Source: a virus
Taxonomy: Duplodnaviria > Heunggongvirae > Uroviricota > Caudoviricetes
Virus record (IMG/VR): IMGVR_UViG_3300024270_000010
Direction: 5' to 3' (one strand)
Length of the DNA stretch: 64,000 bases
Translations under genes and position numbers: made by a program
Shown: positions 20,575 to 29,185 of the stretch, one piece after another
How the letters are laid out: every line of letters begins with the position of its first letter
Position numbering within the stretch: position 1 is the first letter of the stretch
The notes under the pieces: model-generated
The model's input: the letters and a program-made list of their open reading frames with translations, nothing else
What the model was told of the DNA's origin: nothing
Database searches by the model: none

Positions 20575-20808
20575 TTAGAAGGTTGGGCCTTTACGCTCGT
20601 TGAAACAGACATCTCTTGCTGGGTAAAGGTATTTCTGAAAAACAGGACAAAAATATTTTTCCTCGTAAGTTATATCATAGTATTCTGGATGGTCTTTGCC
20701 AGCCCAGTAAAGTTTTCGTTCTTCCATGATAACTTTTGAGCCATCAAAGAATGGACATTTACGATATAAGCAGGTGTGCCACCAGAATTGTTCATCAAAT
20801 TCTTTCAT
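20575..20808 (-). CDS. hypothetical Cys-rich protein (77 aa)
   Basis: ORF; ATGA overlap with the upstream NMNAT-like gene. Confidence 0.35.
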   Translation of the reverse strand: MKEFDEQFWWHTCLYRKCPFFDGSKVIMEERKLYWAGKDHPEYYDITYEEKYFCPVFQKYLYPARDVCFNERKGPTF

Positions 20809-21365
20809 TTGGCCTCCTGGATATACTGCCGAATTTCTTCTCGGTAGTTATAGACAAAAGACGGAACTAACTGTTTTACAGCATAGTCGCCACCCTCCAT
20901 CTGGAATGCCTGCCGCACCAGAGTAGCGCTGATACCCTCATATCGGTCCAGGAATTTGAAGCGAAGTAACCATCTTTCATCCTGTGCGAACCAACCGAGC
21001 ATGATGCGGGGATCGTCACTGTAGTAGATGGTCATATCAGAATCCTTGGTCTTGCCGAACATCTTGATGTAAAGGTATCGGCCCCAACCGTGACTGTTGT
21101 CGCTTTCATCAGTCATATCATCCAAGGGATAGACATGAATGTGTTTCAGATCTTCGGTAGAAAATTGCTCGTGTAAAGCACCTTCCAGGAGCATCAGACG
21201 AAAATCAATGGGCAGAGGATTGCGCTTGGTGCCAGACTTGTCTGCGGAACCCACGAAAATGTGCAGGTCGCAATGATTTGCGGTGCAATCTTCATAAGCC
21301 TTCTTCACCATGTTCATATGACCATTATGAAAAGGCTGTGCGCGGAACAGAATTACTCCAACCAT
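20805..21365 (-). CDS. nadM: Nicotinamide/nicotinate mononucleotide adenylyltransferase-like (NadM-type NMNAT), about 187 aa
   Basis: ILFRAQPFHNGHMNMV is the (R/G)FQPxHxGH nucleotidyltransferase signature of NadM-type NMNATs. The start is trimmed to ATG 21365, preceded by AGGAGG; the ORF-track start at 21521 reads into the upstream gene. Confidence 0.65.
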   Translation of the reverse strand: MVGVILFRAQPFHNGHMNMVKKAYEDCTANHCDLHIFVGSADKSGTKRNPLPIDFRLMLLEGALHEQFSTEDLKHIHVYPLDDMTDESDNSHGWGRYLYIKMFGKTKDSDMTIYYSDDPRIMLGWFAQDERWLLRFKFLDRYEGISATLVRQAFQMEGGDYAVKQLVPSFVYNYREEIRQYIQEAK

Positions 21366-21375
21366 ATAATCCTCC

Positions 21376-21693
21376 TTACTTGATTTCCAGTTCTCTTGCT
21401 TGTTCGCTAGTGATACCGAAGTACTCCTCAAACCCCTCAATGTCAGCGGGGTCGCAGGCACCTGAACAGATACATTTTCCGTCATGAAGCACCCAGTACC
21501 ACATACCATCGGGATACTCAACCAGGTGCTCCATAAGATTGAAAAAGTCTTTCAAATTGGAACAGCCATAGACCGCAACCAGACCTTTTCCGGTAAATTC
21601 TTCGGTAAAATAAACATACGGATCAAGTACTATACGATCCCTAATTTTGTCAGTAAAAGCTACAATGATGGGGGCATCAATATTTACTGTCAT
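21376..21693 (-). CDS. hypothetical protein (about 105 aa)
   Basis: The ORF-track start is TTG; the first ATG is at 21693. Confidence 0.35.
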   Translation of the reverse strand: MTVNIDAPIIVAFTDKIRDRIVLDPYVYFTEEFTGKGLVAVYGCSNLKDFFNLMEHLVEYPDGMWYWVLHDGKCICSGACDPADIEGFEEYFGITSEQARELEIK

Positions 21694-21698
21694 TCTTA

Positions 21699-21950
21699 TC
21701 AATCCCTCTCTTTAATTGTGTATTTATCCCAACCATATTTGGGAATCATTTTCATAAGTGTTATTGAATCTTTTACGCTAAAAAGTTGACAATGCTCGCA
21801 AAAAGTCTTATAAAGAAAATCTTCTGTTAGAGATAAGACCATATCTTGAGCATCTTCCAGAGAGTCACAAAAACATACAATATCATAGCTGTATCGCTCA
21901 TCACGATAGACTTTTAATCTATTTTTCTCGTAAATAGCATACTTGCACAT
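21699..21950 (-). CDS. hypothetical protein (83 aa)
   Basis: First ORF after the class-II promoter at 21980. Confidence 0.35.
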   Translation of the reverse strand: MCKYAIYEKNRLKVYRDERYSYDIVCFCDSLEDAQDMVLSLTEDFLYKTFCEHCQLFSVKDSITLMKMIPKYGWDKYTIKERD

Positions 21951-27226: not shown

Positions 27227-27716
27227 TCAGCTGGGCTTCCAGAACGACGTCGCCCTGAGCCATAGCCTTATCCACAGCCATCTTAGCAGACTTCATATCA
27301 CAACCCTGCTTTTTCAAGAAAGGCATTACATTCTTTACGATAACGCCCTTATTGCCAGAAGTGATAGAAACAGCATTGCAGATACCCCAGTAATTGACCA
27401 TCTTGACGATTTCATCAACATCGTCAATGACCTTGGGAGCATATTCCTCCACAATAGCCAACTTTTCGCGGTATTCAGCCTTGCGGGCCGCATACTTCTC
27501 ACCGTCGGGGCAGGTATCGATCATTTCTTTTACAGTCTTGACATACTTTGTCAATACTTCATCAACCAGTGTATCAGTGATTGCAACACGGGTTTTGTCG
27601 GCAGTAGCAGCCTTGTCAATGGAAGCTACCATATCGGCGATAGTTAGACGACGAAGTTTATTACCCTCTTTTAAAGCTGTCGTCATATCAGCTTTGAGGG
27701 TTTCATACTTATCCAT
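27207..27716 (-). CDS. GatB/YqeY domain protein
   Basis: Start trimmed to ATG 27716 after AGGAG; LKADMTTALKEG...LTKYVKTVKEMID...EYAP...GNKGVIVKNVMPFLKKQG resembles YqeY. Confidence 0.55.
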   Translation of the reverse strand: MDKYETLKADMTTALKEGNKLRRLTIADMVASIDKAATADKTRVAITDTLVDEVLTKYVKTVKEMIDTCPDGEKYAARKAEYREKLAIVEEYAPKVIDDVDEIVKMVNYWGICNAVSITSGNKGVIVKNVMPFLKKQGCDMKSAKMAVDKAMAQGDVVLEAQLNGTGDN

Positions 27717-27733
27717 TGGAGTATGCTCCTTTC

Positions 27734-28564
27734 TTAGTGAAATATAGTAATCCAACCGCCCCAGCCAGCACCGTCATAGGGACCATCAATCAGCATCTGG
27801 GGGAAAATGGATTCAGTGGTATAGATATGCTTGATCAGACCGGACTCGGGCAGATCGCCAAGAGTAACAGTTTCTTCCAGGTGGGTCACATACAGACTTA
27901 CGCTCTTGGCACCTGCTTCCAGCAAAGCCTTTGCGGAGTGGTAGAAAGTGCCACCTCTGGAGCAAATATCATCAACAATCAGAACATCTTTGTCTTTGAT
28001 GTTCTCGGCATTGATAATATCTAGACCTAAAATCTTGCCAGTAGCCCAGTCTCGCTTTTTCATACCAAAAGCATAAGGTAGAGGGGACTTATCAGAGTAG
28101 CGCTTCATTGCGCCCTCATCGGGGAAGAACAGAACTTCAGCCTTGGAAGCCAGAGTAGCCTTATGAATATAAGGCTCAACACCAGTATCCTCTACTCGAT
28201 CAAGCAGAGCCAGGCTCACGTTGCTATGGGCGTCCCGCACCCAAACAATCTTGAAGTTCAGAGAGTTAATAATCTCGCAGAAATACTTCAGAGTAAAGAC
28301 GTCAGAATCAGACTTTACTCGATCCATGCGAGCGTGGGGAATGTAGGGCATATCCAGAACAACATCGGTGTTGCCAAAGTGGCGGTCGATATGACGCTTC
28401 ACGCAGATTAGAGTGAAGAGTTCGCTATCGTCTTCATAAAGCCATTCCACCTTGATGGCGCCTCTGTTATCAAACATCTCTTCTGGATTGAGCTTGATAA
28501 GCAAAGAGTGATCGGGGAACATGGACTGACCGCTACGAATAGAAATATTACCTACTCTAATCAT
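27734..28564 (-). CDS. Ribose-phosphate pyrophosphokinase (Prs)-like phosphoribosyltransferase-fold protein; candidate ADPR-PP synthetase (Adps-like)
   Basis: PRPP-binding loop VLIVDDICSRGGTF and Prs-like N-terminal half; 276 aa. Confidence 0.65.
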   Translation of the reverse strand: MIRVGNISIRSGQSMFPDHSLLIKLNPEEMFDNRGAIKVEWLYEDDSELFTLICVKRHIDRHFGNTDVVLDMPYIPHARMDRVKSDSDVFTLKYFCEIINSLNFKIVWVRDAHSNVSLALLDRVEDTGVEPYIHKATLASKAEVLFFPDEGAMKRYSDKSPLPYAFGMKKRDWATGKILGLDIINAENIKDKDVLIVDDICSRGGTFYHSAKALLEAGAKSVSLYVTHLEETVTLGDLPESGLIKHIYTTESIFPQMLIDGPYDGAGWGGWITIFH

Positions 28565-28576
28565 TGGCTATCCTCC

Positions 28577-29185
28577 TTAGATAATGTTGATCTGGCACAG
28601 CTTCATTGCTTCCAGGGCGGTCTTGTGGGACTCAGGAGTCACGCAAGCGCAGCAGTCAGCAACGACATTGACAGGAACTTCGGGCAGAGTTGCCTTACAC
28701 AGAATTGCATTGGACAGGACGCAGATGCCAGTGCATACGCCCATCAGAGTGATTTCCTCGATTTCAAAGCGGTCATTCATATCATACAGAATATTCTGCA
28801 GTTCAACAGAGCCAAAAGTAGGCTTCTTGACGCGGATGGGGTTCTCGTCATAAACGGGATATGCATCATAACCGGACATATAGCGATTTTCGCCCTGGGC
28901 ATGATGAATCCAGGCTTCAAAGACTTCATCGACGATGCCATAGCCAGCGGTGCCTTCGATGCAATGAGGAACGGGCAGGTTCTTACCTTCCAGAGTATTC
29001 ATATAGTCATCGGTATGAGTATCCTTGGTGAAGATGATAGCGGTATTGGGATCAGCAAGTTGATGAATGGTTTCCGCAACCAGAGGAACGATAGCCTGGG
29101 CTTCGGGAGTACCCAGTGCGCCATCGATAAAGTCCCTCTGCATATCAACGACAATGACTACCTTAATCTTTTCCATATTTTTCAA
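28577..29185 (-). CDS. pncA: Nicotinamidase / isochorismatase-family hydrolase
   Basis: IVVDMQRDF start, catalytic Cys region LMGVCTGICV, 202 aa. Confidence 0.75.
   Translation of the reverse strand: MKNMEKIKVVIVVDMQRDFIDGALGTPEAQAIVPLVAETIHQLADPNTAIIFTKDTHTDDYMNTLEGKNLPVPHCIEGTAGYGIVDEVFEAWIHHAQGENRYMSGYDAYPVYDENPIRVKKPTFGSVELQNILYDMNDRFEIEEITLMGVCTGICVLSNAILCKATLPEVPVNVVADCCACVTPESHKTALEAMKLCQINII

Follow-up and report, generated by a model that had tools for sequence, protein, structure and literature searches.

Why should a phage carry, side by side, enzymes that make nicotinamide adenine dinucleotide (NAD+) and enzymes that consume it? The question is raised by a run of genes, all on the minus strand according to the list of open reading frames (ORFs) and to family profile searches, at positions 20805-29185 of a 64,000-nucleotide stretch of viral DNA (Caudoviricetes; IMG/VR record IMGVR_UViG_3300024270_000010), the whole of which we call the window. 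A first-pass annotation had named eight of these genes, encoding a nicotinamide mononucleotide (NMN) adenylyltransferase (NMNAT), an NADAR protein, NadE, a macro domain, a NAMPT, a Sir2, a Prs-like enzyme and the nicotinamidase PncA, and each of them was borne out, as was an NAD-dependent DNA ligase elsewhere in the window (Table 1). The answer that we think somewhat likelier to be right than wrong is that the cluster is a phage system of NAD+ reconstitution built on the enzymes of the NAD+ reconstitution pathway NARP1, in a distinct, deamidated class that would proceed via nicotinate and ADP-ribose pyrophosphate (ADPR-PP). Family membership, a pattern of residues and gene linkage are what is directly seen; the enzyme activities that enter this proposal are deduced from sequence and gene context.

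In NARP1, ADP-ribose (ADPR) and ATP yield ADPR-PP, which is then combined with nicotinamide to form NAD+ (Osterman et al., 2024). The pairing of a NAMPT with a Prs homologue had been taken for this pathway in the first pass, and at the level of homology the idea is supported by both proteins, as well as by the macro-domain protein considered below. The 596-residue "NAMPT" matches the solved Namat of phage SPbetaL1 (9W5X/9W5W) with 351 bits, Haemophilus NadV with 259 bits and mammalian NAMPT with about 135 bits, and its AlphaFold model (mean predicted local distance difference test, pLDDT, of 83) has Namat 9W5X as its top Foldseek structural match, with a template-modelling (TM) score of 0.88. 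Alignment to Namat shows that the catalytic core is kept (D14, Y16, F190, R193, H246, R310 and D312, which include the catalytic His and the equivalent of Arg306). Canonical Namat enzymes hold their adenine with a selectivity clamp, made of an 11-residue helix motif (SCH), GSXfXfXfTRD, and of a stacking Arg, Lys or Tyr in a clamp loop (SCL) (PMC12774641); in the window protein the loop Arg is kept as R41, and so is the TRD motif. On these scores and alignments we place it in the Namat family of NARP1 rather than with generic NAMPT.

The Prs-like protein shares 36% identity with SPbetaL1 Adps, an enzyme characterised by experiment, and matches PRPS structures weakly, with 30-67 bits. It is also short: at 276 residues it has the length of an Adps (about 280, without the C-terminal regulatory helices of PRPS), PRPS chains having 284-335. 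The residues listed from the structure of ICP1 Adps, F18, R87, F92, H121, D161, K185, D212/D213, C215 and F221 (PMC13586617), have as window equivalents F16, R79, F90, H113, D149, K169, D198/D199, C201 and F207, so that the catalytic Lys of Adps is kept together with the Cys and Phe of its remodelled ATP donor site, where PRPS enzymes carry I and I/M/L. This profile assigns it to the Adps family of NARP1 and not to generic Prs. The Adps and Namat genes share a strand and belong to neighbouring transcription units; they are six genes apart, within the ten-gene distance that Osterman et al. (2024) used in annotating their tree.

Where the window departs from NARP1 is in the pocket that receives the pyridine base. 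In Namat this pocket consists of F189, R192, D215, A242, R306, D13' and Y15', with D215 hydrogen-bonded to the amide of nicotinamide, and the mutation D215A lowers NAD+ synthesis about 8-fold (PMC12774641). In the alignment, H187, G213, D215 and A242 of SPbetaL1 become G188, N214, A216 and S243 in the window (H187G, G213N, D215A and A242S in Namat numbering): two listed pocket residues, D215 and A242, and two neighbours, H187 and G213, are replaced as a set, and the window protein has neither the Asp215 nor the Ala242 by which a Namat pocket is recognised. At these four positions all 18 of 18 sequences linked to PncA differ from all 82 of 82 canonical ones. The corresponding residues of human NAMPT are H191, G217, D219 and A244, Namat D215 being the counterpart of D219, and sister phages that are otherwise syntenic with the window phage carry a natural Ser215/Lys213 variant, the counterpart of human D219S. 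Khan and co-workers reportedly found in 2006 that the human D219S enzyme admits nicotinic acid. In two later reports, D219 is described as the residue that defines substrate specificity, D219S as a change that switches substrate affinity, and D219A as a loss of activity (PMC4919578, PMC7096376). The window enzyme resembles this human mutant in having a small uncharged residue at the same position (exactly Ser in some sister phages); it differs from it in belonging to a natural enzyme family, with three more co-varying pocket changes and probably another ribosyl donor. A carboxylate and an acidic side chain would repel each other; removal of the latter, together with a nearby Ser, Asn, Lys or Arg, would suit the needs of a nicotinate site. 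We thus predict, from these residues, that the window enzyme is specific for nicotinate.

A second peculiarity of the protein is a confidently modelled alpha/beta domain of about 90 residues (about 323-413), inserted within a surface loop. It was considered as the cause of a changed specificity and discarded: an Asp-type Namat, that of Bacillus phage Thrax4, has the same domain, which is therefore not tied to the choice of base. The window protein shares it with Bacillus Tsamsavirus Namat (L114:5986-7704). A different insert, of about 290 residues, is present in three representatives of Asp-type Namat (P0161, P0170 and P0201), where it interrupts precisely the adenine-clamp motif (GS[FY]|TYQ..TRD). 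Its first residue is Cys and its last are SHN, with Thr coming next, and it looks like an intein lodged in a functional loop.

The gene neighbourhood changes with the pocket. In a pooled set of 195 loci, PncA accompanies 44 and NadE 40 of the 49 loci with a non-Asp Namat (32 viral and 17 bacterial), and neither gene occurs at any of the 146 loci with an Asp- or Glu-type enzyme. Four viral loci that lack one partner are cut contigs (L009, L011, L014 and L102), and the other nine gaps are bacterial, a few of them on short contigs. The individual retrievals tell the same story. Fifteen IMG/VR loci retrieved with the window protein, to which Phass-1 and MT835544 from GenBank are added, all have the Ala pocket, and all have PncA, an Adps-like gene and NadE alongside, wherever the contig extends far enough. 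Around canonical Namat, position 215 is Asp (67) or Glu (15) over 80 loci, with neither PncA nor NadE within 10 kb of any. Among 150 cluster representatives (50% identity), 87 carry the canonical H-G-D-A and about 50 are non-Asp, with the signature x-[N/K/S/P/A/R/G]-[A/S]-S. The canonical 11-residue adenine clamp, GSYTYQYxTRD, is retained in about ten non-Asp lineages, and the two divergent representatives of this kind that were looked up both lie beside an Adps-like gene, PncA and NadE. On the IMG/VR contig 3300032167_000002 (402 kb; L107, L109), the whole module occurs twice, in a Ser-type form at 172-193 kb and in an Ala-type form at 373-394 kb, which may reflect two related phages joined in assembly.

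The association extends to bacteria. With one genome taken per species, 63 Asp-type loci have neither PncA nor NadE nearby, and 17 non-Asp loci, mostly from Clostridium, have PncA in 15 cases and NadE in 9. Clostridium intestinale has a chromosomal operon TetR-Adps-PncA-Namat-NadE-NrtR (L118:5895-11129), and Clostridium sp. LS an operon NrtR-Adps-PncA-Namat-PARG (L119:5655-11006), the last gene coding for a microbial PARG. The flanking NrtR, a Nudix domain joined to a winged helix, is an ADPR-responsive regulator, and these operons are a bacterial version of the module, apparently tied to ADP-ribose sensing. All in all, the linkage persists across changed gene orders, identities down to about 36%, and phage as well as bacterial settings. 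It is hard to reconcile with a rival account of the cluster, according to which this is an ordinary nicotinamide-using NARP1 (with NARP2), as the first pass proposed, and PncA, NadE, Sir2, macro and NADAR are independent auxiliaries that merely happen to lie nearby. To be sure, the Adps, Namat-family and NMNAT genes are all there, and accessory genes are known to collect in NARP1 operons. We find this account improbable nonetheless: the residue in contact with nicotinamide is an Ala instead of an Asp, and this replacement reduces the activity of Namat and of human NAMPT alike; the four positions of the pocket vary as a group; with PncA present, the nicotinamide that serves as substrate would be destroyed; and PncA and NadE, which keep company with nearly every non-Asp enzyme, are never found beside the Asp type in 146 loci.

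The first-pass annotation had noted PncA and NadE as parts of a broader NAD economy. Both are indeed present, as core partners of the Asp-less Namat variant and not as loose extras, so that the predicted chemistry shifts to a route from nicotinate through nicotinic acid adenine dinucleotide (NaAD) and on to NAD+. The sequence of events would be the following. NAD+ would be split to ADPR and nicotinamide, either by a NADase of host immunity or by the sirtuin of the phage itself. PncA, which displays the nicotinamidase metal motif D-x-H...P-H-C and the catalytic Cys motif TgiCV and aligns to PncA of Pyrococcus horikoshii, is predicted to turn nicotinamide into nicotinate and NH3. The Adps-like enzyme would make ADPR-PP from ADPR and ATP; the Namat variant devoid of the amide-binding Asp would combine it with nicotinate to yield NaAD, where a NARP1 transferase yields NAD+ directly; and the NH3-dependent NadE, its homologies suggest, would convert NaAD into NAD+. 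The macro-domain protein, and perhaps NADAR, would feed free ADPR into the pathway from modified forms (ADPR-1''-phosphate, O-acetyl-ADPR). Sir2, YqeY and NMNAT would be lineage-specific additions.

This sequence resembles the Preiss-Handler salvage pathway (PncA, PncB, NadD, NadE), with which it shares deamidated intermediates, a beginning in PncA and an end in NadE, and the most serious competitor of our proposal is a phage version of that pathway. The Prs-like enzyme would then make phosphoribosyl pyrophosphate (PRPP), the NAMPT-family enzyme nicotinic acid mononucleotide (NaMN), and NMNAT or host NadD the NaAD used by NadE; or else, in Francisella style, NadE would convert NaMN to NMN and NMNAT would finish the work. 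The change of pocket and the linkage with PncA and NadE fit this scheme equally well, SPbetaL1 Namat keeps PRPP activity in vitro, and the window has an NMNAT, with HxGH (PFHNGH) and ISxT (ISATLVR) motifs readable in the translation, as have the closest relatives. NadE scores alike against the NMN synthetase of Francisella (3FIU) and against ordinary NadE, so that the closest solved structure is uninformative as a discriminator between the two types. What makes the scheme unlikely, though well worth keeping in mind, is the composition of the conserved core. Of the 32 viral loci of the non-Asp class, 8 have an NMNAT within 10 kb, and the 17 bacterial loci have none; the gene is thus missing from 24 and 17 of them, respectively, and the core would be one step short. 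The four conserved genes make a complete route only via ADPR-PP, because a PRPP/NaMN route needs an adenylyltransferase that is rarely nearby. The Prs-like protein is unlike PRPS in its length and in its donor-site Cys and Phe. An enzyme using PRPP would need neither the clamp Arg, which is conserved, nor the full adenine clamp, which several non-Asp lineages retain, and the macro, PARG and NrtR neighbours suggest that ADPR is the input. The window also differs from the Preiss-Handler pathway in having no PncB-family nicotinate phosphoribosyltransferase (its sole phosphoribosyltransferase being of the Namat family), in having an Adps-like enzyme, and in leaving the NaMN adenylyltransferase step outside the conserved core. 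Adps donor-site residues, clamp Arg41, the clamp of several lineages and the neighbouring genes together point to ADPR, and the deamidated NARP1 remains our preferred reading for the class; we are less sure of the donor in the window itself, in view of its long, poorly modelled clamp segment and of its NMNAT.

The same NMNAT had suggested, with NAMPT, the route called NARP2. A NAMPT-family gene and an NMNAT gene do occur together in one phage, as NadV and NatV do in KVP40. The case is weak: the transferase belongs to the Namat clade and lacks the nicotinamide-binding Asp, and the NMNAT has no Nudix domain (KVP40 NatV is an NMNAT-Nudix protein), sits in a separate transcription unit and is not conserved with the module. 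Its true start is probably the ATG that gives 186 residues, and not that of a 238-residue ORF opening with TTG. In a relative of the window phage, on a 202-kb contig, a gene of family PF13521 (AAA_28) stands just upstream of NMNAT (L112:14049-15213), at a place where the window has two small ORFs. We take this family to be that of the ribosylnicotinamide-kinase domain of NadR; its presence hints at an extra nicotinamide-riboside route in these relatives.

Several considerations weigh against the preferred reading. We infer the substrate of the Namat-like enzyme from residues and gene neighbours, and the ambiguous score of NadE is to be counted here as well. The clamp-helix segment of the window protein (residues 477-505; GSMFMM...GPYTRD) spans 34 residues as against the canonical 11 and is modelled with a pLDDT of 43-51, which makes the recognition of ADPR-PP in the sublineage of the window itself uncertain; the Preiss-Handler scheme could invoke a segment that may no longer bind adenine. 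Adps and Namat sit here in different transcription units. Reverse retrieval with the NadE or PncA of the window gave 13 viral loci, 13 of 13 with a non-Asp Namat and all with PncA, Adps and NadE wherever the contig extends far enough, a figure to be read with the knowledge that these loci contain the query gene by construction. The deamidated route takes four steps, as against two in NARP1, and costs one ATP more, an expense for which possible reasons are that hosts deamidate nicotinamide fast or that some defence removes it. Finally, the number of independent events is small. In an unrooted neighbour-joining tree computed with the four signature columns masked, one split holds all 47 non-Asp sequences along with two Asp-type sequences. 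The non-Asp enzymes are essentially one clade, the switch was therefore a single ancient event, and the linkage has been maintained since then rather than established many times, so that its Fisher p-value overstates the independence of events. A midpoint-rooted neighbour-joining tree split the class into ten groups, and we do not claim the repeated convergence that this would imply, since the unrooted test gives a single split. The weight of the linkage evidence lies in its retention over a divergence that equals canonical Namat's in depth, over diverse gene orders, and in phages and bacteria alike. By its sequences the non-Asp class is an old and diverse clade, found in phages and Clostridia.

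The macro-domain protein is 35% identical to the "phosphatase" that Vibrio phage K408 encodes between its Adps and its Namat, and the macro gene of the window adjoins that of Namat, hence within two genes of a NARP1 gene; Poa1p is a distant match. A variant of the pathway termed NARP1-AP, with the architecture Adps-Adpp-Namat, has been described for Vibrio phage Gary (bioRxiv 10.64898/2026.01.28.702374). The window has in common with it a macro gene directly beside the Namat gene, and differs in that this gene follows Namat instead of standing between Adps and Namat. The protein resembles the NARP1-AP phosphatase, and we predict, on this likeness, an Adpp-like enzyme that releases ADPR. It was also tried as a DarG antitoxin and excluded from that family, its match being restricted to the macro part and to 57 bits (for a cut-off of 250), and its length to 168 residues as against 338. 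A reversal of DarT-type ADP-ribosylation by the macro and NADAR proteins, as suggested in the first pass, is conceivable. NADAR follows NadE in 13 of the 32 viral non-Asp loci. Among the bacterial Asp-type loci (L134-L197), NADAR lies within 8 kb of Adps or Namat in 18 of 63 and macro genes are found in 9 of 63; NADAR may belong to ADPR-recycling systems in general, as an accessory. On a divergent phage contig, a gene with a YAcAr domain (PF10686) stands directly upstream of a non-Asp Namat (L115:7569-7919). The YqeY gene recurs beside Adps, and a protein with a GatB/YqeY domain is also encoded near NARP1 in Bacillus phage Thrax4.

As for Sir2, a role as a defence-type NADase (DSR, ThsA, SIR2-HerA) was ruled out: the protein is of the CobB type by NF001752, and PADLOC gave no match at E<=0.001. 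Its profile makes it a CobB-type sirtuin, from the family of NAD-dependent protein deacylases. Such an enzyme would yield nicotinamide and O-acetyl-ADPR, both of which PncA and the TARG1-like macro protein could return to the pathway. Nicotinamidase is known to relieve the inhibition of sirtuins by nicotinamide, as yeast Pnc1 does for Sir2. This would suit a closed cycle serving the sirtuin of the phage, and not counter-defence, in which Sir2 consumes NAD+, PncA clears nicotinamide, the macro protein deacetylates O-acetyl-ADPR, and Adps, Namat and NadE regenerate NAD+. The sirtuin does share one unit with PncA and Adps, and the macro protein is related to the O-acetyl-ADPR deacetylases TARG1/OARD1. 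We consider such a purpose rather implausible, as Sir2 is confined to close relatives of the window (9 of 32 viral loci of the non-Asp class have it, and 0 of 17 bacterial loci) and hence stands outside the conserved core. The cycle is compatible with the deamidated chemistry proposed here, from which it differs only in purpose.

Table 1. Features of the gene cluster, in the order of transcription, and of other genes of the window discussed in the text.
Feature	Position	Strand	Basis
Terminator hairpin, then conserved extended -10 promoter (begins unit 1)	29211-29270	-	
PncA-type nicotinamidase, isochorismatase fold	28577-29185	-	PF00857, 82 bits
Adps-like enzyme of PRPS fold, 276 aa	27734-28564	-	phrog_619, 4e-70
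YqeY/GatB-domain protein	27207-27755	-	family match
CobB-type sirtuin Sir2	26435-27226	-	NF001752, 245 bits (cut-off 221)
94-aa hydrophobic protein (final gene of unit 1)	26188-26472	-	no family match
Terminator and promoter (begins unit 2)	26125-26183	-	
Two small ORFs (88 and 68 aa), conserved in close relatives	25620-26092	-	no family match
Namat-family transferase, 596 aa	23833-25623	-	phrog_448, 1e-138
Macro-domain protein, 168 aa, TARG1/DarG/Poa1p-like class	23327-23833	-	phrog_335, 1e-37
NH3-dependent NAD+ synthetase NadE	22491-23324	-	PF02540, 163 bits
NADAR-domain protein (closes unit 2)	22038-22481	-	PF08719, 110 bits
Terminator and promoter (begins unit 3)	21980-22034	-	
Two small ORFs (83 and 108 aa)	21376-21950	-	no family match
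NadM/archaeal-type NMN(NaMN) adenylyltransferase without Nudix domain	20805-21365	-	profile match; HxGH and ISxT motifs
NAD-dependent DNA ligase LigA, NAD+ consumer outside the cluster	2387-4375	-	family match
AAA_33 kinase with metallophosphatase	16798-18004		
RNA ligase	31125-32588		
Thg1-like tRNA-His guanylyltransferase	37058-37840		
Major-vault-protein shoulder/repeat protein, 833 aa	44943-47444		
DUF2828/DUF7788 protein	62202-63713		

The cluster had been described as five promoter cassettes. Repeated promoters are there, but the number does not stand: in the stretch scanned (20300-29700), promoter copies at 29239, 26153 and 22008 each come directly after a terminator hairpin and divide the region into three transcription units rather than five; just outside it, at 20559, is a fourth copy. 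In transcription order, unit 1 reads PncA-Adps-YqeY-Sir2 and the 94-residue hydrophobic (membrane) protein, unit 2 orf88-orf68-Namat-macro-NadE-NADAR, and unit 3 orf83-orf108-NMNAT-orf77. The first-pass list lacked the YqeY-domain gene, the hydrophobic protein and the five small ORFs. The latter have no family match and no Pfam hit, which discards them as RyR-type or other known ADPR-processing domains; the 108-residue ORF of unit 3 is 80% conserved in relatives.

The promoter itself, TTGATTTTTATAAAAAAATATGATATAAT, which is 29 nucleotides long and has an extended -10 box, recurs in 16 near-identical copies across the window, all on the minus strand, for a chance expectation of 0.21 (sites 10250, 18234, 19203, 20531, 21980, 26125, 29211, 29945, 33827, 35353, 39736, 41711, 44877, 47490, 52724 and 63801). 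Together with the terminator, it seems to form a class of transcription cassettes used throughout the phage. The wider window belongs to a large gut phage, which also encodes GyrA/GyrB, PhoH, a sigma-70 factor and SPFH proteins. A search for near-identical DNA among GenBank phages found no close DNA relative, and a tRNA scan found no tRNA. The vault-like, DUF2828/DUF7788, Thg1-like, RNA ligase and AAA_33/metallophosphatase genes listed at the end of Table 1 may together form an RNA-repair or ribonucleoprotein-like set.

How does the module compare with what is already described, namely NARP1, NARP1-AP, NARP2, NARP3 and RyDEP-assisted NARP1? The parts of NARP3, a PnuC-like transporter and a NadR-like bifunctional enzyme, are not among the window ORFs scanned. 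With NARP1 (Osterman et al., 2024; PMC12774641; PMC13586617) the module shares the families of both core enzymes, encoded on the same strand a few genes apart, and the Nampt-like catalytic core; its pocket, its clamp helix, its constant partners PncA and NadE and the predicted product of its transferase set it apart. In the NARP1 papers searched, neither these partner genes nor the Asp215 variant are mentioned, and the searchable literature has no paper linking NARP1, Namat or ADPR-PP with nicotinamidase, NadE, nicotinate or NaAD. We give an even chance to the module being a fourth phage pathway of NAD+ reconstitution, in which a nicotinate:ADPR-PP transferase always works with a nicotinamidase and an NAD synthetase; the transferases form an old clade, about as diverse as canonical Namat, which is common in large phages of the human gut and also occurs, under NrtR, in Clostridium chromosomes.

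Depletion of NAD+ is among the commonest anti-phage strategies of bacteria, and the most frequent counter-measure known is NARP1. Should the proposal be true, a large share of the "NARP1" hits in gut phages would run a different chemistry, and four residues would provide a simple sequence rule to separate the two classes in annotation. A new reaction, making NaAD from nicotinate and ADPR-PP, would enlarge the known biochemistry of NAD, and Clostridia would recycle ADP-ribose by the same route.

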